Assembly (NCBI GenBank): GCA_963932905.1
Contig: CAWVRN010000017.1
Coordinates: 1 to 64,000 of the forward strand
Length of the DNA: 64,000 bases
Source of the DNA: an uncultured Bdellovibrio sp.
GTDB taxonomy: Bacteria; Bdellovibrionota; Bdellovibrionia; Bdellovibrionales; Bdellovibrionaceae
Direction of reading: 5' to 3'
Position 1 is the stretch's first letter; the number at the start of each line of letters is the position of its first letter. The position numbers and the translations under genes were made by a program. Shown piece by piece: positions 251 through 20,584 of the stretch. A model generated the notes under the pieces. The model was not told the origin of the DNA and did not search any database. It was given only the letters and a program-made list of their open reading frames with translations.

Positions 251-1111
251 TTAGGGTTTAACAGCGATCGTTTGTCCCAATTGGGCAAACGTTTCTATTC
301 CTTGCGCTGAATAGCTTAGAATTTTTTCTTGAAATACCATTTTAGTATTTAGAAATACAACGGCTGTAGATCCACCGAATTCGAAATACCCGCATTCATC
401 ACCCTTATTAAAACGAGTTCCCGTTTTGTGAGTAATTTGGATCGACCCAATGTAGGTTGCACCAATTAGAACGATGTATGCACGGGCATGGTTGTCGAAT
501 TCTAGTTCTAGAACTGTCCTTTTATTTCGAATGAACAGTTTGGAATCATGCTTAAGTGTCACTGGATTTATCGAATATAATTTACCACCAATCGTTTTTG
601 CGAATTTTAAAATACCGGAAAAGGGAAAGTGGAAACGGTGATATTCTTTAGGTGACAAGCGAACAACCATGCTTTGCTTGATTTCAAATGTAGGTTCGAA
701 CTGTAGTAATTCGTTGGCGGTCGAAGTGATTCCTTTGATGGGAAGAGTCGCATCTGTTGAAACTAAATAGTATCCTTCGGCAAGCGCCGAAAAATTATTT
801 TCACCTTTCGAAAATGGACGGGACGTCGGTTTAAAGTTTCGAATAAAATAGTCGTTTAAAGATTTATAGTTTTCGTTAATATAGTCATCGTCCACAATAT
901 CGAATTCTCTTCTAAAACCTGCTATTTTGCTATGGCTCATTGGTGACTTAAGATATTTTGAAACCACTTGGCTAAATATTGGAAATGAAATTGCATAGTT
1001 AACAAGTTTACCAAGTGAGTTAGTGAAAAGCCAATCTGCGATGGCATCACGTTGAATTTTGAGTGGTACAAGCTCATCCGTGGATAAATTGTAGAAACTA
1101 GATTTTTTCAT
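251..1111 (-). CDS. psd: Phosphatidylserine decarboxylase family (pyruvoyl-dependent) proenzyme
   Basis: SLNDYFIR, LSPKEYHRFHFP, IGATYIGSI and the GYFEFGGST self-cleavage motif. Overlaps the upstream ORF by 14 nt. Confidence 0.88.
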   Translation of the reverse strand: MKKSSFYNLSTDELVPLKIQRDAIADWLFTNSLGKLVNYAISFPIFSQVVSKYLKSPMSHSKIAGFRREFDIVDDDYINENYKSLNDYFIRNFKPTSRPFSKGENNFSALAEGYYLVSTDATLPIKGITSTANELLQFEPTFEIKQSMVVRLSPKEYHRFHFPFSGILKFAKTIGGKLYSINPVTLKHDSKLFIRNKRTVLELEFDNHARAYIVLIGATYIGSIQITHKTGTRFNKGDECGYFEFGGSTAVVFLNTKMVFQEKILSYSAQGIETFAQLGQTIAVKP

Positions 1112-2009
1112 ATAGTTTAATCCTATAGGAACCAGTCATTTCGTTTTCAAATAGTTTAGTATTGTGAGTGTTTTCTTTTAACTGATCACTCACTAGGTGA
1201 ATTTCATCAATATAGGACCTAAATAGTATCTGACCTCGAGACGTTAAGGCGCGAGGTACCACATTTATCATTTTCATTTTTTCGACGGGGTTTAAATAAT
1301 TTATGACATTTGAATAAGAAATGAAATCTAATTCGTTTTTCTTGCTGGCTAGAAACTCGTTAATATCTTGGTGTATGTAGTGGATTTTAATATTCGGAAG
1401 ATTGTTTTTGGCTTGTTGCCAAGTGTGTTCAGAAATTAATTCTGAAAATGCTTCAAGTGTTTCAGCGCGGCCCTTGATCAGCTGCTGCCAAAAGAAATTT
1501 TTTCGGTAGTCTGTTCTCATCAGTTTGTGAAATGATAACTTGATATAATCGTGATAGTTAATATCGGTTGATCGGTCTTTCCTGGCCTGTTTTAAAATAT
1601 AGGAATATATTTTTACAAATAAAGGCCATCTTTTTAATGTGGTAAGATCCACGGTTCCTCGGAATTGTGAACCAAAGAAAAGGCGCAGCAGTCGAGCCCT
1701 CGTTTGATAACTCCGTTCATGACGGCCTCTATACAGCGGACTGGTTACGGAGGTGGGATTGACTTTATCAATGAAGCTCTGATAGTCGGGTTCGTGTAAC
1801 AAGCGTAGAACTGACTTCACTTGATCCATTTGAAGCAGAGACTGATCGACAATATAGATTGTTTGGATATGATCTGCAGATAGCAATGGCAGCACACGAT
1901 AACCACTTCCAGCAATGCTGGCCACAGTCTTCGCTGTGTTCGGCAAAACAGAACGTTCGCACCTAGGATCTTCATTTAAGAAAGAATACTTCAGATTATT
2001 TTTTTTCAT
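1098..2009 (-). CDS. DUF3419/BtaA-family SAM-dependent 3-amino-3-carboxypropyl transferase-like protein
   Basis: N-terminal YSFLNEDP, then VASIAGSG..VLPLL, VDQSLLQ and YSNVINYL follow the BtaA/DUF3419 motif order. Confidence 0.72.
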   Translation of the reverse strand: MKKNNLKYSFLNEDPRCERSVLPNTAKTVASIAGSGYRVLPLLSADHIQTIYIVDQSLLQMDQVKSVLRLLHEPDYQSFIDKVNPTSVTSPLYRGRHERSYQTRARLLRLFFGSQFRGTVDLTTLKRWPLFVKIYSYILKQARKDRSTDINYHDYIKLSFHKLMRTDYRKNFFWQQLIKGRAETLEAFSELISEHTWQQAKNNLPNIKIHYIHQDINEFLASKKNELDFISYSNVINYLNPVEKMKMINVVPRALTSRGQILFRSYIDEIHLVSDQLKENTHNTKLFENEMTGSYRIKLYEKI

Positions 2010-4224
2010 TTTCCACCGACTGGTTACTAAATGACCTTAAAATCCAGACATCACCAAACAGAGTCGCGATTAATCCAAAGAACATCAATAATCCAAACGT
2101 TTTTGGCGGCGAGAAATACGAAAATAAAAATAACAAAGCCGAAAGTGACATAATGGCTAAGCAAACCGTCGCACCGCCGGCCAGCTCACCAAGTCCTTTT
2201 GAAATACCTTTGTTTTTATCAACGAGCAAAAAATTAATGGCGTTGTCGCCGGCAAGACCAACCAAGATACTAGCAAACACACTGGTCAGGAAGTTAAGGG
2301 GCATTTGAAATACGATCACTACCAAAAACATCAGTGCTGGCCCCCAGAAGGACGATAAGATGATAGGAATAATTTGATTTCCAGCGTTTACGGCTAGGCA
2401 GATCCAAACGATAATGAGGCTTACGTGAATAATGCTTACAAAGAAACTCTCGTAAAGTGTTTTAGGAACTAGTGATAGCAAGTCCAAATGTTTGACTAGC
2501 CCAGAAATCACTTGGCACTTTTCAATTTTGCAAAAGTCTCGAAGGGTGTTCACTGCCAGGCCTACACCGGCAACCTCAAGACTGTCAATATAGACAAGAA
2601 TTCGGCGACGGCCCGTAGCATCTTCATAACGCTTGTACGACTCATCGGAACCCCATTCAATTTTGACCAGCGGTTTTACGTCGTCGGGAATATTCTTGTT
2701 TAGTTCATCTAATGCTAAAATTCCGCTTTCGATATTTTTAACAAACTTATACTTTGATATTTTGTCGATGGCCTGTCTGACTTGATCATCATTAATTCCC
2801 ACATCAAAAATAATACTCGTCGAGGACTGCCAAGACCGTGTTTCTGAAATGTAGTCAACGGTTTGTCTAAGTTGTTTATCTCGCGAGAAAATGGAATAGA
2901 AATGTTCATTCGTGTTTACGAAATAGGCTCCAAATATTGCGAAAACATAAACTAAAAGCAGAATCTTGCTTTTTTTAAATGATAAATTGCTAATCTGAAT
3001 TTTATTTGCCCAGCGAATGCCGAATGCCTTGCTAGATTTAACCCAAGAGCCTTTCATTTTAAACAATGAATGAATCGCCGGGGTGTAACAGAAAAGAATA
3101 ACCCATTCCAAAATAGATCCAATCGCCGCCCATAACCCCAATTTTTGAATAGATGCCAAATCTGAAACGGTGAGTGAAATAAATCCTACGGCCGTTGTTA
3201 ACGATGTCATAGCGCTGGGTAAAATCAAACGACGATGTGCTTTTCTAAATCCATCTTTGAGCATCAAAGTAGAAACGAAAATAAAATCTTCTAGTGCCGC
3301 TACACCAAGAATCATAAATAAACTATCTGATAGGGCATCTGACGTGGAACCAAACATCGCTTTAAGTGCCATCAATAACGAGTAACCTAAAATTAAATTC
3401 GTGTTGTAAATTAACCCAGATAACCAAGTTCCAAATGACAATCGACAAAGCACGATCAGCATCAGGCAAAATACCAAATTGATCCATTGGGTGGTATCTA
3501 TCCCATAAAGAACTTCAGAAATGTATTCCGCATTGCCGACGTAGGAAAATTGAATTGTCTGTCCAAATTTCTTTGCAAGGCGGTGCTTGATGTCGTCTAG
3601 AGCCACAGGATTAAAGCTGCCATATTTAAAGTTTTCGGTTTCTTCAAACGAAAGATTGATAACTATATCATTTGAACGGCCAACAAATATTTTCCCCCAC
3701 AATGAAGATTTTAAATTGTCTAGTGAGATCACTTTATCGGACGGGTTTTTGCAATCCAGTTGGATATAGCGGGGATAGAAAAGAATCTTGTCCTCAAATT
3801 TTGCTTCACGAATACTAAAACTAGAACTGACCGAATGTATGTTTAAATGATTAGCTAAATCGTAATTTACATAGCCTCGCAATGCACACAGCTGTGATTC
3901 CGTCCATTGCGTATTTTTACTTCGTGCGAGAATGGTGACACTTGGTTTTTCTTCGAAATGTTCTTTCAGATCTTGGTAGGCTTGCGCGCTAGGTAATCCG
4001 CGTGCATCCATGTCATCGGCAGAGAGTTCGATTTTTAATTTGCCGATGTTAAAATAAATTATCAAAAGCACGGCGATAATCGAACCAGCCCAAAGGACGG
4101 GATGACGAATCGCATTTCTGTGAGTCAGTAGCAATACGTAATGTATCCAGCGCAGACTTTTTCGCGAAATGGAATAGAGGGGAGATAGGCTAGTGACCTT
4201 ACTTTGGCCAGGTGGTTTCTGCAT
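1996..4224 (-). CDS. MMPL/RND-superfamily membrane transporter
   Basis: Two repeats of 1 TM + soluble domain + 5 TM. Motifs GVAALEDFIF, TSLTTAVGFISL and GLAGDNAINF. Exact start codon uncertain. Confidence 0.85.
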   Translation of the reverse strand: MQKPPGQSKVTSLSPLYSISRKSLRWIHYVLLLTHRNAIRHPVLWAGSIIAVLLIIYFNIGKLKIELSADDMDARGLPSAQAYQDLKEHFEEKPSVTILARSKNTQWTESQLCALRGYVNYDLANHLNIHSVSSSFSIREAKFEDKILFYPRYIQLDCKNPSDKVISLDNLKSSLWGKIFVGRSNDIVINLSFEETENFKYGSFNPVALDDIKHRLAKKFGQTIQFSYVGNAEYISEVLYGIDTTQWINLVFCLMLIVLCRLSFGTWLSGLIYNTNLILGYSLLMALKAMFGSTSDALSDSLFMILGVAALEDFIFVSTLMLKDGFRKAHRRLILPSAMTSLTTAVGFISLTVSDLASIQKLGLWAAIGSILEWVILFCYTPAIHSLFKMKGSWVKSSKAFGIRWANKIQISNLSFKKSKILLLVYVFAIFGAYFVNTNEHFYSIFSRDKQLRQTVDYISETRSWQSSTSIIFDVGINDDQVRQAIDKISKYKFVKNIESGILALDELNKNIPDDVKPLVKIEWGSDESYKRYEDATGRRRILVYIDSLEVAGVGLAVNTLRDFCKIEKCQVISGLVKHLDLLSLVPKTLYESFFVSIIHVSLIIVWICLAVNAGNQIIPIILSSFWGPALMFLVVIVFQMPLNFLTSVFASILVGLAGDNAINFLLVDKNKGISKGLGELAGGATVCLAIMSLSALLFLFSYFSPPKTFGLLMFFGLIATLFGDVWILRSFSNQSVENEKK

Positions 4225-4394: not shown

Positions 4395-6005
4395 ATGAAC
4401 AAGCTTATTAGTTTGATAGCTGTGTTGTCGTTTTTCGCAGTAGCGAATTCAGCACCGACGAAAGAAAGATGGCCCACAAAATATGAACCAATGGTGGCTA
4501 TGCCTGAAGCGTATACTGTTGCGCCAATTTCATACGAACAGTCTTTAAAAATGGCTGAAGAAGCAAAGAATACTCAAGTTCGCAAAATTGCTGGCGTTGC
4601 GGATGAAACGGGAATGTCGAAAGAACTTGTAGAACTTCGTAATGCGTTAAACAAACTAGGTTATGATGATAATGGGAAAAAACTACCGAAAGCGGAATTA
4701 TATAAGGCTGCAAACAAGCTTCACAAAATTCTGTTAGATGCCAAGGCGAAAGCCGAAACGGCTGAAAATGATTTCAAATTTGTAGTAGCTCATTTGGCTC
4801 CAATGGCGGCTTATCGTAGTATTGTATATCGTATGATTCCTGTTCTTCAACCGTCTCAAGCATTAAGACAATCGATTGTAGATACAATCCAAGATTCATA
4901 TGCTGATATGAAATTATTTTTTCCAGATTCAGAATGGGAAGTGGGGTTCGCGTACATAACAGAACCTTTTTCTGCTTCAAAAGTTGAAGGCGTCGATATC
5001 CCTGCTTCTGCTGATCAATTCAAAAATGAAAGTGAAGTTCAAGCCTACTTAACCGGTAGAATTGCGAATGAAGCTCAGTGGGCTAGCGCGATTTTGTCTA
5101 AGATTAATGTTCCAGCTGACAAGCCACTTGTATTAGATAACCGTCTGATTTACGGAAAAATGGCTTTCAGTAATAAAGCAGATACTGATCGCTATACATG
5201 GGTTAGACAGTATGACGTAACAGCCGCACGTGGTCGCATAGAAAAACAACTCTATTCAATTCGAATCAATGCAGTTTACAACATTCAAAAATCAGCACAG
5301 TTGGCTTCGGAAGTCGCAGCCCTTTACGGGATCGAAGTCGCAAAGGCGAAAATTGCAGGCCTGATTAAAAAAGACGTAATGGCACCAACTCGTAAAGACC
5401 GTATTTCTATTGTTATGCACAGAGAATTCGCGGATTCGTTCGTTAAAAATCCAGATGCTCAAAAGCATTTAGAAGCGGCTATCACTCATCTGCAAAACAG
5501 TGTGGCGCTAAACTACTCTGCTTGGTTAGCGTACTCTAAAGTAACTGATGCCGCATTAAATGCGATCATCGATCCTGCATTTTTCAAAGCTAGAATTCCA
5601 GAAACTGAAAAAGGTTTTAAAAATGCAATTGGCCTGGTCTACGGAAAACAAGATACGGTTACTAGTGTAATTACTGGTAAAACAGTAAAAATTAATTTCC
5701 GCCAGTTCTTATTAACTAGTTTGCCTCACGATAGCAAAAATATGTTGCCAACTATCTTCGATGATAAAGGGCCACGTTACTTAACTCGTGATGGTATGAA
5801 ATATCGTGACTACGCCTGGGGACGTGCGATTGGTTGGGATTCTGCTATCTACCAAAATTTGTTCCCAGAATTAAAAGATATCATTAACGATCCAAAACAA
5901 GGCAAACAAGTCGCCGACCTCGAAGTGAATGATTACATGAAGACCTTCACTGAAAGCCGTGGTGGAACTCAAATCGCAGATTTTTTACTGGGCTACGTTC
6001 GCTAG
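4395..6005 (+). CDS. Secreted hypothetical protein
   Basis: AGGAG RBS before ATG 4395 (preferred to TTG 4347). Sec signal peptide MNKLISLIAVLSFFAVANSA. No family recognised. Confidence 0.75.
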   Translation: MNKLISLIAVLSFFAVANSAPTKERWPTKYEPMVAMPEAYTVAPISYEQSLKMAEEAKNTQVRKIAGVADETGMSKELVELRNALNKLGYDDNGKKLPKAELYKAANKLHKILLDAKAKAETAENDFKFVVAHLAPMAAYRSIVYRMIPVLQPSQALRQSIVDTIQDSYADMKLFFPDSEWEVGFAYITEPFSASKVEGVDIPASADQFKNESEVQAYLTGRIANEAQWASAILSKINVPADKPLVLDNRLIYGKMAFSNKADTDRYTWVRQYDVTAARGRIEKQLYSIRINAVYNIQKSAQLASEVAALYGIEVAKAKIAGLIKKDVMAPTRKDRISIVMHREFADSFVKNPDAQKHLEAAITHLQNSVALNYSAWLAYSKVTDAALNAIIDPAFFKARIPETEKGFKNAIGLVYGKQDTVTSVITGKTVKINFRQFLLTSLPHDSKNMLPTIFDDKGPRYLTRDGMKYRDYAWGRAIGWDSAIYQNLFPELKDIINDPKQGKQVADLEVNDYMKTFTESRGGTQIADFLLGYVR

Positions 6006-6011
6006 TCTGAA

Positions 6012-7595
6012 GTGACTAAGGATCTAAATCTTCTCGTTGCTCTTGAGATCGAAAGAATCAAGAGCAAAACGCAGAATAAAAAATACATTTTAACGGATAC
6101 TATGATCGGAGAATCGTTGGTGACCCCAACGATTCTTACGTTTAGCCTATTCGAATTAGGTCTTTACAATGGAAACTCGATCGCACAAGCGATGGAATGG
6201 TTGGGTTTTCCGTTCTATCACAAGCCAACTGAGCCCGCAGCATTCATGCTTTTGTTTGGGCGCCCCTACGTAAATGTGTCTTCATATACACAAGCGTCTT
6301 TGCCTTATTGGCCGATAAAATTTTCAACTAATCACCAAGTAGAAATGTCGATCAAACCGTCGATTCTATTATTGTGGCCGCTGATGTTGTATCAATCGGG
6401 AAGGATTCTGTATCATCTGCGACAATTTATTCTAAGTGCAGAATCTAAATGGGCATCAATGAAAATGGACTGTCCGCGCGCGATTTTGGAAACTGAAAAC
6501 TTGGGAACGAGTGCGCAAAAGATGGAGCAGTCTTTAAAAAATAGTCAGAAATTTTTTGCCTTTCACGTGGCTACCGATTTTTGTTTTGGTGGTATCCAGG
6601 TTCTGTTAAAGGGCCTACATAAAATATTGAAGGCTCCTCACGATATCAATGTTTGGGATCCTAATTATCAAGATATGCCTTTGATTCAGTTTCACTTAGA
6701 TTTATGGAAACTCAGCCATAATCAAATTTCTAGAGAGTCTTTTATCGCTAAACACGGTTGCCGTAGTCATAAAGATTGGGAAATATCGGCACCTAGATTT
6801 TATGAATCGTCCTCGCAGCTGGATGAATTGTTAAAAAGCTTAAAAGAGAAAGATAGTTTTGAGATTGTTTTTAAAAATCAACAGGTAGAAAAAGCTAAAC
6901 GACAAGATGAAATTAGGAATTATTTGAATCGAAAAACATCAATTTTAAAAAATTGGTATCTGAAGCTTGGACAAAGCTATGCGAAAATTTTTGTTTTACG
7001 TGAAGATTCCAAACGGCTTTGTTTTGAATGGATAGCATTGTTTCGGCGTGTAGTTATAAATATTCAGCGCGAAAATCATTGGGGTGATATCGTATATCAC
7101 TTGTCCATTGATGAATTAGAATCTGCAGTGCTTGAAACCGACCGTATTAAGTTAGCGTCTTTATTTCAAATGGCTCAAGAGCGTAAGGATGCTGCGGATC
7201 GGTTGATTGCCGTAAAGCTTCCGTCCGCAGTCGACACGAGCCGCTTGAACGAGCTTTTCAATTTAGAAACTTCCTCACAGATTGATGAACTTGTTTGCTT
7301 GTCTCCGGGGGTTGCGGAAGGGGATGTCATCGTAGTGAATTCGGCCGCCGATTGTACCTCAATTCAAGCTAATCATATTGTGGTGACGCGATTTGTGGAT
7401 CCCCAGTATATTCCTTTCATGATCAAGGCTCGCGGTTGGATTCTTGAACAAGGCAGTTTGCTGGGGCATTCTTCTATATTGGCTCGCGAGGCGCTGATTC
7501 CAGTTGTATCCAGCTATCGCAATGCCACCGAGACATTTAAGCAAGGATCGCGTGTGCAGTTGGATGCGAACGTTGGCGTAGTCCGTCAAGTCTAA
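6012..7595 (+). CDS. PEP-utilising enzyme mobile (phospho-His swivel) domain protein, RPH/PPS-like, no ATP-grasp domain
   Basis: C-terminal SPGVAEG...EQGSLLGHSSILAREALIPVV...LDANVG. Central HGCRSHKDWEISAPRF resembles the helical substrate domain of rifampin-phosphotransferase-like proteins. Confidence 0.8.
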   Translation: MTKDLNLLVALEIERIKSKTQNKKYILTDTMIGESLVTPTILTFSLFELGLYNGNSIAQAMEWLGFPFYHKPTEPAAFMLLFGRPYVNVSSYTQASLPYWPIKFSTNHQVEMSIKPSILLLWPLMLYQSGRILYHLRQFILSAESKWASMKMDCPRAILETENLGTSAQKMEQSLKNSQKFFAFHVATDFCFGGIQVLLKGLHKILKAPHDINVWDPNYQDMPLIQFHLDLWKLSHNQISRESFIAKHGCRSHKDWEISAPRFYESSSQLDELLKSLKEKDSFEIVFKNQQVEKAKRQDEIRNYLNRKTSILKNWYLKLGQSYAKIFVLREDSKRLCFEWIALFRRVVINIQRENHWGDIVYHLSIDELESAVLETDRIKLASLFQMAQERKDAADRLIAVKLPSAVDTSRLNELFNLETSSQIDELVCLSPGVAEGDVIVVNSAADCTSIQANHIVVTRFVDPQYIPFMIKARGWILEQGSLLGHSSILAREALIPVVSSYRNATETFKQGSRVQLDANVGVVRQV

Positions 7596-7613
7596 GGTCT
7601 AGATCTGAAATCG

Positions 7614-7629
7614 TGGCATTGATCCTGCT
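7614..7629 (+). promoter_or_regulatory. Putative sigma-54 (-24/-12) promoter
   Basis: TGGCAT-TGATC-CTGCT, with exact GG-N10-GC spacing, upstream of an AGGAG RBS and the ORF at 7655. Confidence 0.55.
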
Positions 7630-7654
7630 CCTGTTCTGAACTACACAGGAGCGC

Positions 7655-8146
7655 GTGATGTACATAGACTTCCCTAATTATAACGAAGGTCCAGTCGCTG
7701 CGTTGATGCGATTGAAAAGCATGAGCCTAGCGGAATCAAAAAATGATTTCAGAAAACGACACGTTCGTGTTGAGCTTTCTTTTCTTGCCGACAAACAACG
7801 TTGGCAAATGGTGTTTTATAAAAATCAGCAAATGATTTTTCTGAAAACATTTTCGAAAACATGTCGTTCATCGATCGGTCATTGGTTCCGGACTTATAAC
7901 TTGGAATTGGACCAAGAGTCCCAAGTAAAAATTCCATGGAAGTCGCTAGAGAGCGGGGAAAAATGGGTGGTCGAGGCTTATGTGAATCGACGTTACTGGA
8001 GTTTACTAGAGTTGCCTCCAGAGCTTTCTCTGTGCCAAATAATCAAATGGCCAGAGAATAGAAAACCGCGTCCGAGAAGGAACCTTTTTGAATGCGAAGA
8101 TATGGGAAAAGTAATTCCGCTCCCGATCGTAAAAAAGCGACGTTAA
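7655..8146 (+). CDS. Hypothetical protein
   Basis: 163-aa ORF with AGGAG RBS. No recognised family. Confidence 0.6.
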   Translation: MMYIDFPNYNEGPVAALMRLKSMSLAESKNDFRKRHVRVELSFLADKQRWQMVFYKNQQMIFLKTFSKTCRSSIGHWFRTYNLELDQESQVKIPWKSLESGEKWVVEAYVNRRYWSLLELPPELSLCQIIKWPENRKPRPRRNLFECEDMGKVIPLPIVKKRR

Positions 8147-9456: not shown

Positions 9457-9473
9457 TTAGGATTGTAATCAAT

Positions 9474-11270: not shown

Positions 11271-11272
11271 CG

Positions 11273-12776: not shown

Positions 12777-14053
12777 TATGCATATCTCTCGTAAGTCGAT
12801 TTCAAAATGTCTACCGCATCTTGAATATCCTTAGGTGTATGAGTTGCCATTAGTGACACTCGAAAACGTTCGCCGCCCTTAGGAACACCCGGAGGTTCAA
12901 TAGGATTTACGAAAAGCCCATTTTCATGAAGCTTTTGCGATAATATACGAAAACTTTCTGGCGTTGGTGGGAAAACGGGAATGATCGCGCTGCCGGTGCG
13001 TGTGTACTTAATGCCGGCTTTATCTAAGTAGTCGTAAAATAGTTTAATATTCGTATGCAATTTATCTACACGTTCTGTAGAACGTTCTAAAATATCAAGG
13101 CAAGCTAAAATAACGGCCATAGATACGGGAGACAAAGACGCGGTGAAAAAATAAGGACGTGAGAAGAATCTTAAAAAGTTCACAGTGTTTTTGTCAGCAG
13201 CAAAGAAACCACCGGTGATTGAGAAGGCTTTTGAGAAAGTTCCCATGGCGTATTGCAAACGCTGAGTGATCCCCACTTCTTCAGCCATTCCGCGACCTTT
13301 ACCCATAACACCAGTGCCATGAGCGTCATCGATCACATATTTAGCGTTGTACTTTTCGCAGACATCAGAGATTTCTTTGACTGGCGCTAATTCGCCGTTC
13401 ATTGAATAGACCCCTTGAGTCGTCACCCAAAGGTCACGATTAGCATCTTTATCACGATATTTTTTTAGCATTTTTTCTAAATCATCGGGATCGTTGTGAT
13501 TGAAACGAAATGCTGTTTTGCGGCCGAGTTTGATTCCATCGACAACCGATGCGTGTGAAATTTCGTCAAAAAACAATACCGCGTTGTCAGATACTAGCGT
13601 TGTAACCCATGTTAAACTTGTCATGTAACCAGATGGTAGAATAATACAGTCTTCTTTGCCTTTGAAGTGGGCAAGACGTTCTTCCACGGTTCTGTGCAGT
13701 TTTGAAGTGCCATTGAGTAACATCGGGCCGCCCATGCCTAGGCCTTGGGTATCGATAGCTTGTTTAGCACGTTCTTTCACTTCGGGATCGTTGGCAAAAC
13801 CAAGATAGTTGTTCGAACCCATCATGATCATATCGATCGTCTTTCCAGAAATAGGATCTTTAACTAATACACGACGATCCACCGGTGATAAAATTTCGCG
13901 ATGATATAAAAGTTTGCCTTCATTGTAGAGTGGGCGGAAATAACTTTCGAAAAAATTAACATCCGCGTCGATCTGCCCTTTAAACTGGCTGGCTAAAGTT
14001 AATAAGTTAACCGCATCTGACGTATTGTCGTTCCAAGTTCCTGATTTATCCAT
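12776..14053 (-). CDS. PLP-dependent alpha-oxoamine synthase, serine palmitoyltransferase-like
   Basis: MMGSNNYLG, SHAS, GVYSMNG, DDAHG, GTFSKA (PLP lysine), FTASL. Family is certain; SPT versus BioF/KBL is inferred from context. Confidence 0.8.
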   Translation of the reverse strand: MDKSGTWNDNTSDAVNLLTLASQFKGQIDADVNFFESYFRPLYNEGKLLYHREILSPVDRRVLVKDPISGKTIDMIMMGSNNYLGFANDPEVKERAKQAIDTQGLGMGGPMLLNGTSKLHRTVEERLAHFKGKEDCIILPSGYMTSLTWVTTLVSDNAVLFFDEISHASVVDGIKLGRKTAFRFNHNDPDDLEKMLKKYRDKDANRDLWVTTQGVYSMNGELAPVKEISDVCEKYNAKYVIDDAHGTGVMGKGRGMAEEVGITQRLQYAMGTFSKAFSITGGFFAADKNTVNFLRFFSRPYFFTASLSPVSMAVILACLDILERSTERVDKLHTNIKLFYDYLDKAGIKYTRTGSAIIPVFPPTPESFRILSQKLHENGLFVNPIEPPGVPKGGERFRVSLMATHTPKDIQDAVDILKSTYERYA

Positions 14054-14104: not shown

Positions 14105-15118
14105 TTACCGCGTTAAGTTAGGGCGGGTCCACGAATTCTGCTGATACCAACGATAGGTCAAAGATATGGTTTCATTTAAATTGTGCTTGTACGAAAAACC
14201 CGTGTCCGCGATGAAATGAGAGGTGTCAAATACCCAGTACGGCGCCATCATTTCACCTAGCTTGTTTACATTTTTGTTAGTCTTTTTCCCAGTTAAAGCC
14301 TCTTTGAGGTCAAAGTATTTCAAATACAAAAATGTAATAGTAGGATTCAAGAAAAGTATTTTTAGCGAGCGACCTAGAAACAGTTCGATCGCTGTTTTCA
14401 TTTGATTCCAATCAGCTGCGTTAGGGTACGCGATATGATAGATTTTATTCTTTTGTTCAGAAAATAATGCGGTTTCAATGGCTCGTACCAGATCTTGGAT
14501 ATAAATAAACTGAAATACTTTTTTCTTTTGCCCTAAGATAGGAAACTTACCTGTATCGGCTGTTTGAAAAATCTCAAGAAATGTTTTGTCTTCGGGGCCC
14601 AGGATAGGGGCGGGTCGGAACACAAGTGATGGTAAAGACGAATTTAAAACTTCTTTTTCTGCCATCAGTTTAGTTTCACCGTAAAAAGAAATCGGCTTTG
14701 CAATCGCGGACGGTGGAAGTTTGTTCTCTGCTGAATCGCTAGGACCCAAGGCACTTTGCGACGAAAGAAAAATTAATTTCTTTAAACCTTTTGGTAATTG
14801 AACAAGTAGCTGTTGAGTGATTTTGAAATTTGACAAAAGGTAGTTATCATATTTTGCCCCGAGCATGGTTCCTGCACAATGAACGGCGTATTCGACGGCG
14901 GGTAACGGTTCAAGTAATTGACCCAGATCAGAAAATTCACCAGCTAATATTTTAAGATTCGTGGAATCTTGATTGCCCCATTTTTGTTTAAAGAATTCAA
15001 CTTGTCCCGGCAGCATAAATGCATACACAGTAAATTTTTTGCTTAAAGAACGGCATAGGTGGGTTCCTACAAAACCATCAGCGCCGGTTACTAAAATAGT
15101 TGTTTCTCTTGCGTTCAT
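14105..15118 (-). CDS. NAD-dependent epimerase/dehydratase (extended SDR)
   Basis: TGADGFVG, HCAG, SSQSA, YGETK. Confidence 0.88.
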   Translation of the reverse strand: MNARETTILVTGADGFVGTHLCRSLSKKFTVYAFMLPGQVEFFKQKWGNQDSTNLKILAGEFSDLGQLLEPLPAVEYAVHCAGTMLGAKYDNYLLSNFKITQQLLVQLPKGLKKLIFLSSQSALGPSDSAENKLPPSAIAKPISFYGETKLMAEKEVLNSSLPSLVFRPAPILGPEDKTFLEIFQTADTGKFPILGQKKKVFQFIYIQDLVRAIETALFSEQKNKIYHIAYPNAADWNQMKTAIELFLGRSLKILFLNPTITFLYLKYFDLKEALTGKKTNKNVNKLGEMMAPYWVFDTSHFIADTGFSYKHNLNETISLTYRWYQQNSWTRPNLTR

Positions 15119-15141: not shown

Positions 15142-15834
15142 ATGACGTCCTTCAATGATAATTACGATTACATTCTGTTAGACCTTGATGGCACACTTGT
15201 CGACTCTCCGAAAAAAAAGTTTTTGCTTTACAATACGCTTGGGCTGTTCAAAAGATTTCGTAAGGTTTTCGGTTTATTGAAAACCGTCCCGGTTGTTAGC
15301 CGGGCGATTGCGGCCATGTTAAAAAATAGTAGTTCGACGGGGCTAACCAATTATTCAGTATTGGTGGCTACCTGCCATAGGGAGTCCAGCACGCCCGAAG
15401 AAATCATTCGTCATGAATTGGATCTATACTATCACAATGACTTTCTAGCCTGGGAAAAATTGTTTACTGCCGTACCAAATGCACTTGAGTTTGTGAAACA
15501 AGCAAAGGTTCGAGGAAAGAAAATGTATATTTGGACGAATCCTATTTGGCCCGAATTCAATGTGAAAAAACGCTTAGAGTGGGCAGGCTTTGATACAAAT
15601 GATTTTGAGGGTTTCACGCACTCACAAAATGCTATTGGATGCAAACCTAACGTTGAATATTATGCCTATTCTTTAAAATTGTTTAATTTAGATCCCAGTC
15701 GCTGCGTGCTGATTGGAGATAGCGAATACAAGGATGGGCCGGCTCGAAAAGTAGGAATCCATACGTTTATTCTTTCATCTGACAAAGCACAGTCTTGGAC
15801 TGACTTAACGGAAAAACTTGTCTTAGGGAACTAA
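15142..15834 (+). CDS. HAD-superfamily hydrolase (phosphatase)
   Basis: DLDGTL, WTNP, CKP, IGDSEYKD motifs I-IV. Confidence 0.9.
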   Translation: MTSFNDNYDYILLDLDGTLVDSPKKKFLLYNTLGLFKRFRKVFGLLKTVPVVSRAIAAMLKNSSSTGLTNYSVLVATCHRESSTPEEIIRHELDLYYHNDFLAWEKLFTAVPNALEFVKQAKVRGKKMYIWTNPIWPEFNVKKRLEWAGFDTNDFEGFTHSQNAIGCKPNVEYYAYSLKLFNLDPSRCVLIGDSEYKDGPARKVGIHTFILSSDKAQSWTDLTEKLVLGN

Positions 15835-16869
15835 TTGGCTAGGCAGTGAAGCAGACCACTGTTGCTGAGACTGCAAATAAAACGCGGGATCTTTGATATC
15901 GGCTAGCAAGTTTCGGACGGGGGATAAATCCACCGATTGTCCGTTGATATGCAAATTTGGTAGCGACGAATCCATCTGGCCAATATTTAGAAATCCGAAA
16001 TTATTTTTTCTCATTTCAGTTTCAAAATCTTTTTGTTGAGCCCGCGGGACAGTGAATAGCAATTCGAATTCGCCCAAATGAATACTGGCAAATAGTATCA
16101 GTGGAACGTTTAACTGATTAGCAATTTGCACGGCGAGTGGATGAAAATGGGACGACGTTAGTTTTAAATTTACCTTTGACTGATTGATAGAGCACAAGAA
16201 ATCAAGTGCGGCTAACAATGCATCGCTAGTATCAATGCAAGCCGACGCATAGCGAGCGATGATTTGTGCTTCGTTAATTCGTGCCTTAGGTTGAAAACTA
16301 CGCTCGATTTTCGCTGCCATTTCTGCTGATTTTGATTTTATGACAAAGTTCGCAAAACCCGTGGCAACGCCCATGCCCACGGGGCCAGTTAAATAAACTA
16401 GGTCGCCATCATTCGTGCCTTTGCGTGAAAGTTGAATCGATTTATCACGTTGTCCAATCGCTGTGCAGGAAACCAGAAAGTTAGTAGAATCATTTGTGTC
16501 ACCGCCCAATAAATATGTTTGGTGTGCCTTAAGTGAATCTTGTGTCCCTTGCCAAAATTTTTTAGCAAAGTCTTCGCTGGTGAATTCCGGCTGACTTAGG
16601 CCAATCAATACGCCCAGAGGTTGGGCGGCAACGGCCGCTAAGTCGGACAAACTAGATACTGTGTTGATCCATCCGATGATATAGGGATCTGAGATAAGTT
16701 TCCATTCCAGTTCTTCACACAGAATGTCACTTGTGATGGCAATATCGTGTTCTAATCCGAGATCTAAAATTTCACTGTCTGTTTCGTAAATTTTATTTTT
16801 CTGATAAGGTGCACGCTTGAATAACGAAACCAGCTGGGTAATTCTTTCGATCTCGGTAATATTATTCAC
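15823..16869 (-). CDS. ThiL-like (PurM/AIR synthase superfamily) kinase, paralog 2
   Basis: TSDIL, LSDLAAV, GGDT, GDLVYLTG, IDTSDA, GEFEL. Overlaps the upstream gene by 4 nt. Confidence 0.8.
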   Translation of the reverse strand: MNNITEIERITQLVSLFKRAPYQKNKIYETDSEILDLGLEHDIAITSDILCEELEWKLISDPYIIGWINTVSSLSDLAAVAAQPLGVLIGLSQPEFTSEDFAKKFWQGTQDSLKAHQTYLLGGDTNDSTNFLVSCTAIGQRDKSIQLSRKGTNDGDLVYLTGPVGMGVATGFANFVIKSKSAEMAAKIERSFQPKARINEAQIIARYASACIDTSDALLAALDFLCSINQSKVNLKLTSSHFHPLAVQIANQLNVPLILFASIHLGEFELLFTVPRAQQKDFETEMRKNNFGFLNIGQMDSSLPNLHINGQSVDLSPVRNLLADIKDPAFYLQSQQQWSASLPSQLVP

Positions 16870-18398
16870 GACAGTCTCTTGATTTTGCCTTTATTGGCGT
16901 CGACTTCGATCAAATCACCATTTTTAATTGTTTTCAAGCCGTTGATCTGAAGCACGCAAGGTATTTGTAGTTCGCGCGCAATAATAGCTCCGTGACTCAA
17001 TAGTCCGCCAGATTCTGATAAGATAGCTTTACCTTTAACAAAGGCGGCGTGAAAATTTGGTGATGGTGTTTGGCATAACACAACACAATTATCAGGACAG
17101 TTTAATAGTGAATTATAGTCGGTGACCCAGAACGCTGGCCCTTGTGCTTTACCTGAACTTGCTACAGTTCCAATCCATTCTGAACGCAATTCACCTGATA
17201 CCAACACGGAATCATCTTTTGTTGTGTAAAAAAGAGTCTCACGATGATCTAAGTTATCTTCGGCAACATTTTCGTCGGCCCGAGGTTTGACGTACGATTT
17301 TCTAGTGAGAATAATATTTTGAATTTCTTGTTTGCTTGGTATTTTTTCTGCGATCAAGTCAGTTTGAAAGCGAACAATTTCGTCCAACGTCAGATAGAAT
17401 AAATCTTCTTTGTTTGTCAGCAATCCGTTTTGAATCCATTCGTCTGCTATCTTATGCAATAAATTGCGAACATTTGGAAACTGATACGAAGCATAGAAGC
17501 GATGCTGTTCGTCGCAAGACACTAATTGAACAAACTGAAAAGCCATTGGGTTAGAATCATTTAAAGGTGCAGACGCGTTGTCTGTGGTAGGCAATTCACG
17601 CTGGTGACTGTTTATCATAGCGCTAATGAGTTTGGGTTGTTCCGAAAATGTAGGCTGGGCGATATCCCAGCTTAAAGACAAATGACCGATACCTTTCATC
17701 ACAAAAGAATTCACAGCATCGGGATCGGATAATACGGCAACTTCTTGTATAAGGTGGCTGATATGCTTACCAATTTGAAATGGACTATGAGATGTCAGGT
17801 TTTGTATCGATATGGGTTCGGACTGCCAGGTGGCTATTTTTTCCAAAAAAACCTTCAGAAGGTTTTTGTAAAAATAAATCGAAAAATCCAGGCGATTGTA
17901 CGCACAGCCATCCGCCTCGATTTTATCCAACAAGGATTTAAAGTTAGGATCTGTTGGCGTCCATGTCAGTGCCGCAATTGTATTTTCTTTGAAGTGTTTT
18001 AAATGCGAAGGCAGTTCTTTTTTCCAATCTTGGATGACGATTTGAATCTTAGGTTGGATTTCTTTTCTGTAAACACGTTTCAACCACCGTGTTTTGAATT
18101 TCTCTTTACGACGAAAATCTACGCAAGTAACAAGAGCGTATAGAAAAAGGCGAGCAAGCAGAGCTGACAATGGTAACAAAGCAAAATAGTAAACGGGCAG
18201 ACGCCTGAAGAAATCTTTGCTAGAATAGAGGTAGCCATCAATCCAGCGCGTAATTTCGTCATTTCGAAGTCGTCGCAAATAAAATTCAGATTTAATCGCC
18301 TCAAGGTTGGTGGTCAATGCCGATTGCAGGACACTCCAGCCCAGCGGTGAAATTGCATCAGGAAAACGTTCTTTAGATTCGTCACGGGTCCAGATCAC
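16866..18398 (-). CDS. PEP-utilising enzyme mobile (phospho-His swivel) domain protein, RPH/PPS-like, no ATP-grasp domain
   Basis: Begins directly with WTRDESKERFPDAISPLGWS. C-terminal GTVASSGKAQG...ESGGLLSHGAIIARELQIPCV...VDANKG. Confidence 0.82.
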   Translation of the reverse strand: MIWTRDESKERFPDAISPLGWSVLQSALTTNLEAIKSEFYLRRLRNDEITRWIDGYLYSSKDFFRRLPVYYFALLPLSALLARLFLYALVTCVDFRRKEKFKTRWLKRVYRKEIQPKIQIVIQDWKKELPSHLKHFKENTIAALTWTPTDPNFKSLLDKIEADGCAYNRLDFSIYFYKNLLKVFLEKIATWQSEPISIQNLTSHSPFQIGKHISHLIQEVAVLSDPDAVNSFVMKGIGHLSLSWDIAQPTFSEQPKLISAMINSHQRELPTTDNASAPLNDSNPMAFQFVQLVSCDEQHRFYASYQFPNVRNLLHKIADEWIQNGLLTNKEDLFYLTLDEIVRFQTDLIAEKIPSKQEIQNIILTRKSYVKPRADENVAEDNLDHRETLFYTTKDDSVLVSGELRSEWIGTVASSGKAQGPAFWVTDYNSLLNCPDNCVVLCQTPSPNFHAAFVKGKAILSESGGLLSHGAIIARELQIPCVLQINGLKTIKNGDLIEVDANKGKIKRLS

Positions 18399-18405
18399 AT
18401 TATCC

Positions 18406-19803
18406 TCATTCCAGCTTCGTTTTAATTTGCTCGATAGAATCTACTGGCAAATTCAGCGATTTAATTTTTGCGGTTAATGTTTTAGGGAAAGGTGTCAATG
18501 TGCCAAAGGTGACTACGCTGAATAGAAATTTAACCATCGATTTCGCCAAGTCATAATGATGTTTGGCAATTAGCAGCCAGTGCAGTTTCCAGCCCAAATC
18601 AAAAGCAAAAACCCGCGACAACAAGTAGGGAGTTTTCCAATATGCTATGGCCAACTGAATTAGACTGGTACTGTCATCTAGGCTTTGCATAAAAATGACG
18701 TCTTTCTTTTTGGGCCAGATAAAGTGTTTCCACATTTTAAAAAGAAAGTAGGCTTTTTCGTAAAACATGTCGGCAAGTGAAAACAAGGCGTAGTTTTTTT
18801 CGATACGACTGGTTTGAGTGCTGCGTGATCGCACTAAATAGTAGAGTTCGCGACAACGATATTGCGTATCTGTCACCACAAATGGATCCACGTTTGGTTT
18901 CAATACTGAAATCCACTCTTGTAATTGGGGATCAGGTTGTATGCGATTCATTAAACACAAATTGCGATAAACGGGATCGTAAGCCTTTGTTGTTTGAACC
19001 AGTTTTAAAAAGTCAGTCGACGATATTCTATTTTTTTTAGTACGGAACCAATTGATGGGGTCACACAACTCTTTAAGACCTGTTTTGTAATAAGCTAAGT
19101 GAACCACAAGATGGAAAAAGAAATAGAGATCATTCAGTCGAAAACAGGGGATTCCCAAGTAGGAATGGGGTACAGTGTGGCTCCATAACGCTGTTTCGTC
19201 GATTTTTATTTTCGAAAGTGGAGTCATGATATTCCAGTGAGTTCCTAAAACACAATCCATCGTGCGCGTGAAGAAAGGTGGCCAATGATGCGAAAATTTT
19301 TCTTGCTTGCGATAATTACTGCCGCCAAGGCTAGCGGCGCATTCCAGGTTCAGGTCTTTGTAAATGACATCCAGCTGATCAAGTGACGACGTCTTAACTA
19401 GAAAATCCACATCGTTCATTTTTTTGTAGAATACGGAACCATACAGCGATTCCGCCAGCGCTTGCCCTTTCAGGATGACGAATGGAATATGATTTTCATA
19501 AATTTTTGAAAAAATAGTTTTAGCTTCCGCGTTTCTTAGCGCGTTCTGCTGACTGATTTTATCATAAGTAGATTTTAATTCAGAAAGTATTGAATCTGGA
19601 ATCTGAAGTCCATGTTTTAAGATATTTAAGTACACCAAGCTTTCGCAGGCGTTCAGCTGGACAAGGTGTAACCAAAAGTTCCACTGTTTGTTTTCTTGGA
19701 TGATGAACACAAGTGAATTCAGTCGCGAAAATTCATCAGCAGAAAGAGAAATCAAATTCAGTAAACAAATCGATTCGGCGACTTCATTTTTGTGCTTGAG
19801 CAT
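18406..19803 (-). CDS. Nucleotidyltransferase family protein (NTP_transf_5-like, Pol-beta fold)
   Basis: ILKGQALAESLY...MNDVDFLV and a downstream HW motif. Confidence 0.78.
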   Translation of the reverse strand: MLKHKNEVAESICLLNLISLSADEFSRLNSLVFIIQENKQWNFWLHLVQLNACESLVYLNILKHGLQIPDSILSELKSTYDKISQQNALRNAEAKTIFSKIYENHIPFVILKGQALAESLYGSVFYKKMNDVDFLVKTSSLDQLDVIYKDLNLECAASLGGSNYRKQEKFSHHWPPFFTRTMDCVLGTHWNIMTPLSKIKIDETALWSHTVPHSYLGIPCFRLNDLYFFFHLVVHLAYYKTGLKELCDPINWFRTKKNRISSTDFLKLVQTTKAYDPVYRNLCLMNRIQPDPQLQEWISVLKPNVDPFVVTDTQYRCRELYYLVRSRSTQTSRIEKNYALFSLADMFYEKAYFLFKMWKHFIWPKKKDVIFMQSLDDSTSLIQLAIAYWKTPYLLSRVFAFDLGWKLHWLLIAKHHYDLAKSMVKFLFSVVTFGTLTPFPKTLTAKIKSLNLPVDSIEQIKTKLE

Positions 19804-20584
19804 GGTCTACTTTCAGTATTTGATCGTTATCTTTTTCAAATCGTGTTTTAAAAACCCAGTCCCAAATACACAGCACTTTACCAAAATTATGGAACATGCT
19901 TTCGTTTTGGTGGTGCCAGCGATGTAATTCTGATGTGTTAAAAAATTTATTAATAAACATCGTACTGTGTCTGAAATTCACATGAATCAAAATTCCAGTC
20001 ACCCCACTTAAGGTAACGAACAAGTACTGCACTTGCGGACTGACAGAAAAAATCAATAAAGGCAAAAGGTAGAAAAACGCACTGAGAAATATATCCACAA
20101 CGTGAAACGTCGCGGAGTTATTCCAGTAAACGGTTGCATATTGATGGTGATATTTGTGGATTTTCCATATCAGATCAGATTTGTGACCTAGATAGTGATA
20201 GGCGTAGTAAAACAATTCCGCAATAATCAAGATGCAAAATGTTTGAACTATCGGGTTCCAGTGATGGGGCCATAGAAAACCAAGCATCGGTACCTGTGCA
20301 TTTCTAAGGTGGGTTCCGATGATATCGATAGCGAGAGAAATCAAGGGTAATTGGATAAAAGTAAAATAACTATCCCACACGAATTGCTTAGTGAACATTT
20401 TAAATCGTCGATCAAAGGGAAGATAAATCTCCAAGATAAATGCAGTCAGCATGCTGCCAATGATTAGGATCAAAGAGAGTTGCTGAAGTTCGGTCGTATT
20501 CAATCGGTCGTAAGTAAGGAAAATAGGCACGACGAAAAAAAGCAGAAACAGCGGGTATATAGCATGATGGATAATTCGGCCCAT
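19784..20584 (-). CDS. Fatty-acid hydroxylase / sterol desaturase family di-iron membrane enzyme
   Basis: His boxes HYLGH, HKYHH, IHVN, HRWHH, plus NFG...WDWVFKT and TM helices. Confidence 0.9.
   Translation of the reverse strand: MGRIIHHAIYPLFLLFFVVPIFLTYDRLNTTELQQLSLILIIGSMLTAFILEIYLPFDRRFKMFTKQFVWDSYFTFIQLPLISLAIDIIGTHLRNAQVPMLGFLWPHHWNPIVQTFCILIIAELFYYAYHYLGHKSDLIWKIHKYHHQYATVYWNNSATFHVVDIFLSAFFYLLPLLIFSVSPQVQYLFVTLSGVTGILIHVNFRHSTMFINKFFNTSELHRWHHQNESMFHNFGKVLCIWDWVFKTRFEKDNDQILKVDHAQAQK

Follow-up and report, generated by a model that had tools for sequence, protein, structure and literature searches.

The window analyzed here is a stretch of 64,000 nucleotides from an uncultured Bdellovibrio sp. 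(contig C17, positions 1-64000, of the source assembly G000, which comprises 4.55 Mb in 58 contigs), and the nearest public relatives of the source genome are metagenome-assembled genomes labeled Bdellovibrio, Bdellovibrionaceae, or Pseudobdellovibrionaceae. At positions 251-20584 it carries an island of 18 open reading frames (ORFs), each of at least 160 aa, with hardly any intergenic DNA and with genes that overlap or abut. The initial annotation, made from the sequence alone, had described this island as a candidate cluster for a sphingolipid or amino-lipid with an unusual head group. Its gene list proved accurate, as all 18 ORFs lie at the coordinates given and 16 of them belong to the families named. 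Families were assigned to the window proteins by comparing Pfam and NCBIfam profile scores with their cut-offs; nine enzymes were also checked for catalytic motifs, and all nine have them intact.

Central to the island is an α-oxoamine synthase (AOS; 12776-14053, minus strand), the sole AOS detected in the genome and the predicted catalyst of the committed step. Its scores are nearly equal against SPT-CFB (323.6 bits), BioF (321.6 bits, cut-off 426.45), and KBL (319.1 bits, cut-off 460), all of them under the cut-off, and the three models for serine palmitoyltransferase (SPT) are missed (NF047600, 323.6 against 640 bits; NF047599, 314.3 against 500; NF047603, 241.0 against 670). The best PDB matches are to the Sphingobacterium SPT, at 231.8 bits. 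A maximum-likelihood tree was built from 54 sequences, with references labeled via NCBIfam cut-offs: L106, L116, L117, and L118 for SPT; L096, L097, L102, and E. coli Kbl for KBL; E. coli BioF for BioF; and L011 for ALAS. Eight rows were left out, namely five duplicates (L098-L101 and L105), L009 because of a stop codon, and L010 and L012 as distant AOSs (28-29% identity, 348 and 374 aa). The window AOS falls in a separate clade of 30 rows with 100/100 support, to which the validated SPTs are the sister group (98/91); KBL (100/100) and BioF/ALAS stand apart, on the other side of the tree, and a quick tree agrees. The enzyme is neither BioF nor KBL, nor is it a canonical SPT. The initial annotation had called it SPT-like and had proposed a phylogeny with SPT, BioF, and KBL as the check; the affinity to SPTs rather than to BioF or KBL stands, but the enzyme belongs to a clade of its own and misses the SPT cut-offs.

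The catalytic center of the AOS is conserved. The motifs TFSK, SHAS, and DDAH, which include the pyridoxal phosphate-binding Lys and the active-site His and Asp, align with K244, H138, D210, and H213 of the S. multivorum SPT, whose roles are given in the available part of PMC10196870; the same text has the substrate loop residues Gly80-Ser81 contacting the substrate. This Gly80-Ser81-Arg82 loop, which contacts the serine carboxylate, is not kept in the window enzyme, where G-P-M is found instead (GMGGPMLL), so that Pro-Met takes the place of the SPT Ser-Arg; the SPTs read GSRF and the KBLs SVRF. A loop of the form G[GA]P[PMQ]LLNG is characteristic of the clade of the window AOS and is shared by the copies of Nocardia and Legionella. 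Two genomes hold, beside the cluster copy, a second AOS that is more SPT-like by NF047600: L094 (G351:C112, Bacteriovoracaceae) with 496 bits and L095 (G350:C9, Chlorobiaceae) with 488 bits. Among the relatives, the AOS is 90-95% identical and the neighboring cluster proteins 49-91%, which points to unusually strong constraint on this one enzyme.

The AOS gene is overlapped by that of a thymidylate-kinase-like (TMK-like) P-loop kinase (12180-12776, minus strand), which also overlaps the gene of a DAGK/YegS-family lipid kinase (11273-12190, minus strand; PF00781, DAGK_cat, 34.9 bits, with matches to YegS models and a GGDGT motif). The name TMK-like, used already in the initial annotation, is backed by the orthologues in L013 and L197, which score 34 and 42 bits, but the window protein itself reaches 24.2 bits on PF02223, under the cut-off of 27, and matches PDB thymidylate kinases at E 1e-3, which speaks for a TMK-like fold only. 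Its P-loop, GLDGSGKDT, has an Asp after the Lys, a position usually taken by Ser or Thr in P-loop kinases. Two short-chain dehydrogenases/reductases (SDRs) could act on the product of the AOS. One is a classical SDR and candidate 3-keto reductase (9474-10238, plus strand; PF00106, 117.2 bits; YxxxK motif), which scores 74.5 bits on the 3-ketodihydrosphingosine reductase (KDS reductase) model, under the cut-off of 400. The other is an extended SDR of the epimerase/OleD/HpnA type and a candidate lipid keto-reductase (14105-15118, minus strand; PF01370, 76 bits; OleD models, 54.3 and 50.7 bits; GxxGxxG and YxxxK motifs). A HAD-IA phosphatase follows at 15142-15834 (plus strand; PF00702, 43.1 bits; DLDGT motif).

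Two proteins carry the swivel phospho-His domain of the PEP-utilizers family. Protein A (6012-7595, plus strand; PF00391, 55.6 bits) is matched by PigC, RedH, and PEP-synthase-like models by their C-terminal parts only, corresponding to the C-terminal two-thirds of rifampin phosphotransferase (RPH) or PigC, and protein B, hereafter PEPut_B (16866-18398, minus strand; PF00391, 61.3 bits), aligns end to end with fused proteins of L013 and L021 from residue ~290 to the end. The catalytic His is kept in both swivel domains (GSLLGHSS in protein A and GGLLSHGAI in PEPut_B). Neither protein has a PF01326 match, that is the PPDK_N ATP-grasp domain, which is present in the homologues of L013, L021, L197, and L173. 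PEPut_B itself corresponds to the dikinase of other phyla with this domain removed. Only 15 loci, nearly all of them labeled Bdellovibrionota, yielded members of its family, which is marked by W[TS]REESKER near the N-terminus. The dikinase resembles the PDB entries 5fbs and 5hv1, both of which we take to be rifampin phosphotransferase.

In all loci in which the order was read, the gene directly upstream of the PEPut_B-type dikinase gene encodes an NTP_transf_5 nucleotidyltransferase (18406-19803 in the window, minus strand; PF14907, 98.3 bits). Its AlphaFold2 model has a pLDDT of 91, and the core fold is nearest to ANT(2'')-Ia, LnuA, and TM1012 (E 3e-3 to 2e-2), which are small-molecule O-nucleotidylyltransferases; a KG...NDxD motif is invariant. 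The island further encodes two ATP-dependent enzymes of the AIRS/ThiL-like type, A (10227-11270, minus strand; PF00586, 60 bits) and B (15823-16869, minus strand; PF00586, 61.7 bits), both of which miss the TIGR01379 thiL cut-off (134.8 and 160.0 bits, respectively, against 184.15). AIRS B is 30-37% identical to the AIRS proteins encoded beside the AOS in loci of the FCB (Fibrobacteres-Chlorobi-Bacteroidetes) group, and further AIRS proteins are encoded elsewhere in the genome.

The remaining genes include those expected for lipid tailoring and export, and the initial annotation was right that lipid-type tailoring enzymes, a DAGK-family kinase, a paralogue of phosphatidylserine decarboxylase (PSD), and an RND (resistance-nodulation-division) exporter are present. 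At the right end lies a membrane fatty-acid hydroxylase (19784-20584, minus strand; PF04116, 82.1 bits), OlsE-like (89.3 bits, model cut-off 475), with three His boxes and hydrophobic segments, and a cytochrome P450 with the haem motif FSAGPRSCIG is encoded at 8143-9456 (minus strand; PF00067, 264.8 bits). At the left end, the PSD-like pyruvoyl enzyme (251-1111, minus strand; PF02666, 134.6 bits, cut-off 22) reaches 205.7 bits on NF001941, under the equivalog cut-off of 371, and has its Gly-Ser self-cleavage site in the sequence GGST at residues 245-248; it is an extra paralogue, another and better-scoring PSD being encoded on contig C26. Its gene and that of the RND protein are both overlapped by the gene of a DUF3419, BtaA-like, SAM-dependent protein (1098-2009, minus strand; PF11899, 57.7 bits), and in the Niabella locus L093 a DUF3419 gene also adjoins the AOS module. 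The exporter itself (1996-4224, minus strand) had been named MMPL; its matches to HpnN (32.3 bits) and HAE3 (26.6 bits) and its many hydrophobic segments make it an HAE3/HpnN/MMPL-like member of the RND superfamily, but these profile matches are weak and the MMPL score of 16.9 bits is under the cut-off of 20.5. RND genes occur also in L013 and L004.

Two proteins of the island belong to no family. The larger, at 4395-6005 (plus strand; the longest ORF begins at 4347), is a secreted, mostly helical protein of 536 aa with a signal peptide, and its homologues in L013, L030, and L004, also with signal peptides, make it a conserved member of the cluster. Its AlphaFold2 model has a pLDDT of 65; Foldseek gave no match at E<=0.001, the ESM Atlas yielded unnamed clusters only, and the best Z in a VIA search, 7.6, fell on helical repeats, which is the noise level for helical models. 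Kinship with the phospholipase D (PLD)-like proteins of L021 and L024 was considered and rejected, as the proteins are unrelated, and an HKD/PLD motif is found in none of the window proteins. The smaller, of 163 aa (7655-8146, plus strand), has no Pfam or NCBIfam match, and its orthologues are limited to the closest relatives (L002, L003, L007/L016, and L020).

The window begins at a contig end, and the island is consequently incomplete at its left edge. The relative G060, in which this region lies on a single contig, shows what stands beyond the PSD gene: contiguous with it are genes for a methyltransferase, a TamH/PigE-like aminotransferase-reductase, and a PigC-like dikinase. The same three genes are found at the start of contig C7 of the source assembly (C7:53-5788), where the methyltransferase (C7:53-697) and the TamH/PigE-like reductase-aminotransferase (C7:694-3297) are 77% and 80% identical to their counterparts in G060, and the full-length PigC-like dikinase (C7:3287-5788) is 42% identical to the full-length dikinase of L024; together, the TamH- and PigC-like copies (C7:694-5788) have 41-42% identity to the L024 homologues. 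Given this correspondence with G060, the island is ~26 kb long and divided between contigs C7 and C17. The extent given in the initial annotation is therefore correct for the genes at 251-20584, but a further TamH/PigC-like module lay on the neighboring contig, outside its view. The end of a 78-aa ORF at 3-239 matches no family and is unlike the methyltransferase and TamH-like proteins of the relatives.

The rest of the window is housekeeping, with methylcitrate genes, BamA, Skp, LpxA/B/K, MreC, PBP2, RodA, and Lol-type genes. The right flank (21198-26049) encodes a DUF1456 protein, a short M24-family peptidase-like ORF, and a methylcitrate-cycle set (PrpD, PrpB, and a citrate-synthase family protein), and the 94-97% identity of PrpD among the relatives indicates that the insertion site is stable. 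The ORF at 23969-24865 was considered as a phosphoenolpyruvate mutase (PEP mutase, Ppm) and rejected: with 420 bits, above the cut-off of 354, it is the methylisocitrate lyase PrpB, and it adjoins PrpD and citrate synthase and is unrelated to phosphonate chemistry. No true Ppm was found in G000, where the one further match to the PEP_mutase family is weak (54 bits, contig C3).

The initial annotation had taken the tightly packed genes for one biosynthetic unit and had expected them to be co-conserved elsewhere, and both suppositions were borne out. L002, L003, L007/L016, and L020 share the gene content and order of the island, and L004 does so for the most part; the recurrence of the same genes in the same order in several relatives indicates a grouping beyond chance. 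A divergent version in L013 and L022, whose AOS is 58% identical, keeps the RND protein, the TMK-like and DAGK kinases, the SDR, the dikinase, the secreted protein, NTP_transf_5, HAD, and the extended SDR. At the edge of this divergent cluster, where the contig stops, L013:261-1244 encodes a true PEP mutase (332.2 bits on TIGR02320, cut-off 319.55), which suggests a phosphonate variant of the product. Further modules in other Bdellovibrionota versions comprise genes for the synthesis of 3'-phosphoadenosine 5'-phosphosulfate (PAPS) and for a sulfotransferase (L021, L023, and L030), as well as genes for acyl-CoA dehydrogenases, PLD-like transferases, a PigE/TamH-like fusion, and a full-length PigC-like dikinase. 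In each of the 13 close loci whose flanks reach 3 kb or more, the DAGK gene is no further than 3 kb from the AOS gene. The distribution of the cluster is patchy: AOS matches of at least 52% identity occur in 4 of 301 sampled Bdellovibrionota genomes (G000, G008, G209, and G333) and matches of at least 59% in 4 of the 61 genomes of the family sample (G000, G060, G008, and G014), with none in G046 of the same genus.

Part of the gene set is kept far outside this group. A search with the NTP_transf_5 alignment gave 83 relatives; 80 loci were retained and 79 examined (L150-L228; L028 was left out). They define a core consisting of the AOS, NTP_transf_5, an RPH/PigC-type phospho-His dikinase, HAD, a TMK-like kinase, a DAGK-like kinase, and an SDR, and in the window an AOS with the clade loop adjoins NTP_transf_5, a PEPut_B-type protein, HAD, and DAGK. 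In Nocardia, the AOS, NTP_transf_5, DAGK, and HAD genes are together in 41 of 41 loci, accompanied by a PEPut_B-type dikinase in 40, a P450 in 40, and an SDR in 37. Legionella-type loci (four) and loci of Acidobacteriota, Planctomycetales, Deltaproteobacteria, and Riflebacteria have the order AOS, NTP_transf_5, dikinase, HAD, TMK-like kinase, DAGK (L163, L166, and L203 show it), and the AOSs of these loci keep the clade loop and are closest to FCB-type copies. The combination is thus not peculiar to the island, since its core is a cross-phylum operon. Nevertheless, a literature search, outside which subscription journals and supplements lie, found no description of this cluster, and the statement that the combination is undescribed stands.

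Several observations accompany this survey. The Nocardia loci (L171-L227) read, for example at L178:2404-11579, P450, full-length dikinase, AOS, NTP_transf_5, HAD, DAGK, and SDR, and in L173 an AMP-binding gene, a TetR gene, and an ABC-2 transporter lie near the operon. The apparent gene fusions in the Planctomycetales locus L161 (TMK-DAGK, PEPut-HAD, and AOS-NTP5) were rejected as artefacts of over-extended ORFs in high-GC DNA, and BLASTP shows no TMK-like or PEPut_B-like part in them. A smaller module of AOS, ThiL-like, and DAGK genes occurs in Ignavibacteriota, Bacteroidota, and Chlorobiaceae. In L032, L033, L049, L057, L062, L065, and L076 (~6000-12700), the order is SDR, UbiA prenyltransferase, DAGK, ThiL-like AIRS, AOS, and B12-binding radical SAM, with a response regulator frequently coming next; no description of this FCB-type operon was found. 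Among loci with flanks of at least 3 kb, and with five duplicates dropped, AIRS and AOS genes are at most 3 kb apart in 27 of 39 loci whose AOS is 40-49% identical, in 11 of 13 at 50% or more, and in none of 4 below 40%. Finally, Teredinibacter waterburyi (L041:4754-15181) combines a cluster-clade AOS with an esterase, RidA, a methyltransferase, an acyl-CoA dehydrogenase, an SDR, an acyl carrier protein (ACP), a P450, and a ketosynthase, and none of the kinase or nucleotidyltransferase genes is present in this locus.

The reading that we favor, with slightly less than an even chance of being correct, is that the island (251-20584 together with C7:53-5788) is one cluster for a specialized, phosphorylated amino-lipid of the sphingoid type, made by a route other than the ceramide pathway. 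Judged from the chemistry of the enzyme families, the AOS of the distinct clade would condense an amino acid, not necessarily serine, with a fatty acyl thioester to give a long-chain α-amino ketone, which the SDR, the extended SDR, or both would reduce to a 2-amino-3-hydroxy base. The DAGK-family and TMK-like kinases would then phosphorylate this base stepwise, from hydroxyl to phosphate to diphosphate, and the ThiL-like proteins may add or extend phosphoanhydride bonds. The ANT-like NTP_transf_5 and the adjacent phospho-His enzyme of the RPH/PigC type would activate the hydroxyl or the phosphate for coupling of the head group, after which the HAD phosphatase could trim the product. The fatty-acid hydroxylase and the P450 would hydroxylate the chains as a lineage-specific decoration, and the TamH-like reductase-aminotransferase with the PigC-like dikinase would stand in for a ceramide synthase by supplying a second alkyl chain and attaching it as an amine. 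An amino head group might be made by the BtaA-like protein and the PSD-like decarboxylase, the cluster also holding a methyltransferase, and the RND pump and the secreted helical protein would export the product.

Apart from the synteny and the cross-phylum core, this favored reading draws on the placement of the AOS clade beside the SPTs with its catalytic residues conserved, on the likeness of the NTP_transf_5 fold to small-molecule O-nucleotidylyltransferases, on the TamH/PigC module, on the overlapping gene coordinates, which point to translational coupling, and on the sulfotransferase and PEP mutase of the relatives, which can be seen as variable anionic decorations. The lipid character of the product is suggested by the OlsE-like hydroxylase, the YegS/DAGK kinase, the OleD/HpnA-like and KDS-reductase-like SDRs, the PSD paralogue, the HpnN/MMPL-like RND pump, and the PLD-like phosphatidyltransferases encoded in relatives. 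Several points weigh on the other side. The patchy distribution fits a dispensable specialized metabolite better than a core membrane lipid, and it is in small-molecule natural-product chemistry that ANT-like and RPH-like folds, and enzymes of the PigC/PigE type, are typically met. The substrate loop of the AOS is unlike that of all characterized AOSs compared, which leaves the amino acid, and even the chain length, unfixed. Furthermore, the RND and TMK-like assignments rely on sub-threshold scores, the roles of the five ATP-using enzymes are guesses from family chemistry, and an ACP or acyl-activating gene was not seen among the scanned window ORFs, whereas Nocardia has an AMP-binding gene there.

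One alternative keeps the ceramide: the AOS would be an SPT, the extended SDR CerR-like, and the DAGK CpgB-like, and the other enzymes would build a new head group on ceramide phosphate. The sister position of the AOS clade to validated SPTs, the Sphingobacterium SPT as best PDB match, and the presence of PSD and of the FA_hydroxylase family agree with it, as do the identification of CpgB as a ceramide kinase (available part of PMC12275187), the DAGK_cat gene that adjoins a validated SPT in L147, and the phosphonosphingolipids of Bacteriovorax stolpii (available part of PMC8942020). However, the last source, in the part available, places the phosphonolipid cluster of B. stolpii in another Ppm family, GCF 761. 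The AOS misses all three SPT models, forms its own fully supported clade, and has Pro-Met in place of the SPT Ser-Arg, and G351 and G350 each encode a further AOS that is closer to SPT. The island yielded no N-acyltransferase or ACP; in particular, PP-binding and AMP-binding domains (ACP and acyl-activating) have no match among its 18 scanned ORFs, smaller ORFs of <80 aa lying outside the scan. The two neighbors of the L146 SPT (387 and 336 aa), presumed by synteny only to be bCerS or CpgC and CerR and used with no positive control, have no match in G000 at E<=0.01, which is a weak argument. The core is moreover shared with 41 loci of Nocardia, a genus for which we know of no report of sphingolipids. 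The ceramide-type route put forward in the initial annotation was thus not supported, as no ceramide synthase was found, the scanned ORFs include no ACP, and the AOS is not a canonical SPT, and we consider the alternative improbable.

A more serious contender, if still a rather unlikely one, is a diffusible specialized metabolite, such as an antibiotic, a signal, or an amino-alcohol directed at prey or host, secreted by the RND pump, with the kinases, the nucleotidyltransferase, and the phosphatase forming a pro-drug or a self-protection and activation cycle. The patchy distribution and the widely varying accessory modules would suit such a compound, as would the PigC- and PigE-like enzymes, the similarity of the NTP5 fold to the antibiotic-modifying ANT(2'') and LnuA and of the dikinase to 5fbs and 5hv1, the TetR and ABC-2 transporter genes beside the operon in Nocardia L173, and the membership of the Teredinibacter locus, with its ketosynthase, ACP, P450, acyl-CoA dehydrogenase, and methyltransferase genes, in the AOS clade. 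By contrast, the OlsE-like membrane hydroxylase, the PSD paralogue, the BtaA-like protein, the PLD-like transferases of the relatives, and the HpnN/MMPL-type RND pump point to a lipid that resides in the membrane. The two readings overlap, because a specialized lipid can be both.

Within the favored sphingoid-type amino-lipid cluster, the charging of the short swivel-His proteins admits a further proposal, possible though on balance doubtful, namely a new kind of two-component dikinase in which PEPut_B, having lost PPDK_N in this lineage, would have its swivel His phosphorylated at the expense of ATP by the ThiL/SelD-like AIRS protein encoded by the overlapping gene. The roles given here to the AIRS proteins assume the functions of ThiL and SelD as we understand them. 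The proposal is consistent with the form of PEPut_B, which matches the full-length enzymes of L013 and L021 except for ~290 missing N-terminal residues and keeps the His, with the 4 bases by which the AIRS_B and PEPut_B genes overlap, and with the name dikinase that SelD, a member of the AIRS family, carries in NCBIfam. Among the 72 loci with a usable PEPut_B-like match (one contig-edge locus was dropped), a long dikinase occurs without AIRS in 51 and with it in 4, and a short dikinase occurs with AIRS in 14 and without it in 3. This pairing is suggestive, but it is mostly phylogenetic because 40 of the long forms come from Nocardia, and the short forms are confined to loci of the Bdellovibrionota type. 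A strict rule by which AIRS replaces PPDK_N was rejected, given the four loci with both, the FCB-group loci that have AIRS beside the AOS with no PEP-utilizers gene at all, and the full-length dikinase on C7; the latter, or other PPDK_N proteins encoded in the genome, could also charge the short proteins in trans.

A bolder generalization, which we judge unlikely in its entirety, is an unrecognized pathway spread over at least six phyla, in which non-ceramide sphingoid lipids would have their 1-hydroxyl converted to a di- or polyphosphate or to a nucleotide-linked ester by a fixed set of DAGK-like, TMK-like, ANT-like, dikinase, and HAD enzymes, and in which Bdellovibrionota would add the second chain as an amine via a TamH/PigC-type pair and use truncated dikinases charged by ThiL/SelD-like proteins. 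If the favored reading of the island is right, bacteria would have a second way to sphingoid-type lipids, independent of the Spt-bCerS-CerR pathway, with an AOS subfamily of its own and unusual phosphoryl- and nucleotidyl-transferring machinery for the head group. Because the core operon is present in cultured genera such as Nocardia, the product could be sought by ordinary genetics and lipidomics, and a Bdellovibrio-like organism would not be needed. The G[GA]P[PMQ]LLNG loop offers a marker for the AOS clade, whose members may be miscounted in metagenomic surveys of "Spt-like" genes such as PMC11334938.

The swivel-His proteins share with the RPH, PigC, and PEP-synthase dikinases the central and phospho-His swivel domains and the catalytic His; unlike them, both window copies are without PPDK_N, and the gene of the PEPut_B type lies directly downstream of NTP_transf_5. 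As in the tambjamine and prodiginine tail module, a fused class-III aminotransferase and NAD-binding domain adjoins a full-length PigC-like dikinase (G000 C7, G060, L139, and L145), the TamH/PigE proteins being presumably reductase-aminotransferases and TamQ/PigC condensing enzymes. However, no genes for the pyrrole part were seen in the loci scanned, and the L024 homologues score far under the equivalog cut-offs (347 against 850 bits on PigE and 300 against 1300 bits on PigC, both from NCBIfam); here the acceptor of the module would be an AOS-derived carbonyl. The DUF3419 protein and the pyruvoyl-type PSD, encoded by overlapping genes, recall the chemistry of betaine-lipid head groups, in which we assume the usual function of BtaA, but the BtaB methyltransferase partner and a PS synthase are not in the window, and the acceptor would not be diacylglycerol.

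The sulfonolipid (capnine) route likewise forms a sphingoid-like base with an AOS outside SPT proper, which there uses an anionic amino acid. The cysteate-C-fatty acyltransferase of PDB entry 28eh matches the window AOS at 164.6 bits, much more weakly than SPT (231.8), and the window showed no gene for cysteate synthesis; the sulfur genes of the relatives, being those of PAPS synthesis and a sulfotransferase, imply O-sulfation. Among phosphonate clusters, in the gene-cluster family GCF 540 of Li and Horsman, genes for a thymidylate-kinase-like protein and a PF14907 nucleotidyltransferase flank that of PEP mutase (available part of PMC8942020). The pairing of TMK-like and PF14907 genes beside a true Ppm in L013 and L022 is like it, as judged from the description in that part of the source, whereas G000 has no true Ppm.

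A further point of reference is the ceramide phosphoglycerate (CPG) system of Caulobacter. As far as the available parts of PMC11324152 and PMC12275187 describe it, the ceramide/CPG2 system comprises Spt, ACP, CerR, bCerS, an acyl-ACP synthetase, and CpgB, together with CDS-like, CDP-alcohol-transferase-like, and CofC-like proteins, a cytidylyltransferase, and LptF/G paralogues, and the alphaproteobacterial locus with a validated SPT shows this Caulobacter layout. Measured against those descriptions, the island has the same general plan, with an SPT-related AOS as the first enzyme, a DAGK-family lipid kinase, a nucleotidyltransferase, and dedicated export genes. Unlike the Caulobacter enzyme, the island AOS stands in a separate clade under the SPT cut-offs. 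The likeness that the initial annotation had drawn to Caulobacter does not extend to the head group, for which the island has NTP_transf_5, the RPH/PigC-like dikinase, and the ThiL-like, TMK-like, and HAD proteins, and Caulobacter, in the available part of PMC11324152, enzymes of other families, namely the CDS-like, CDP-alcohol-transferase-like, CofC-like, and cytidylyltransferase proteins. Export differs in the same manner, with an RND pump in the island and LptF/G paralogues in Caulobacter.

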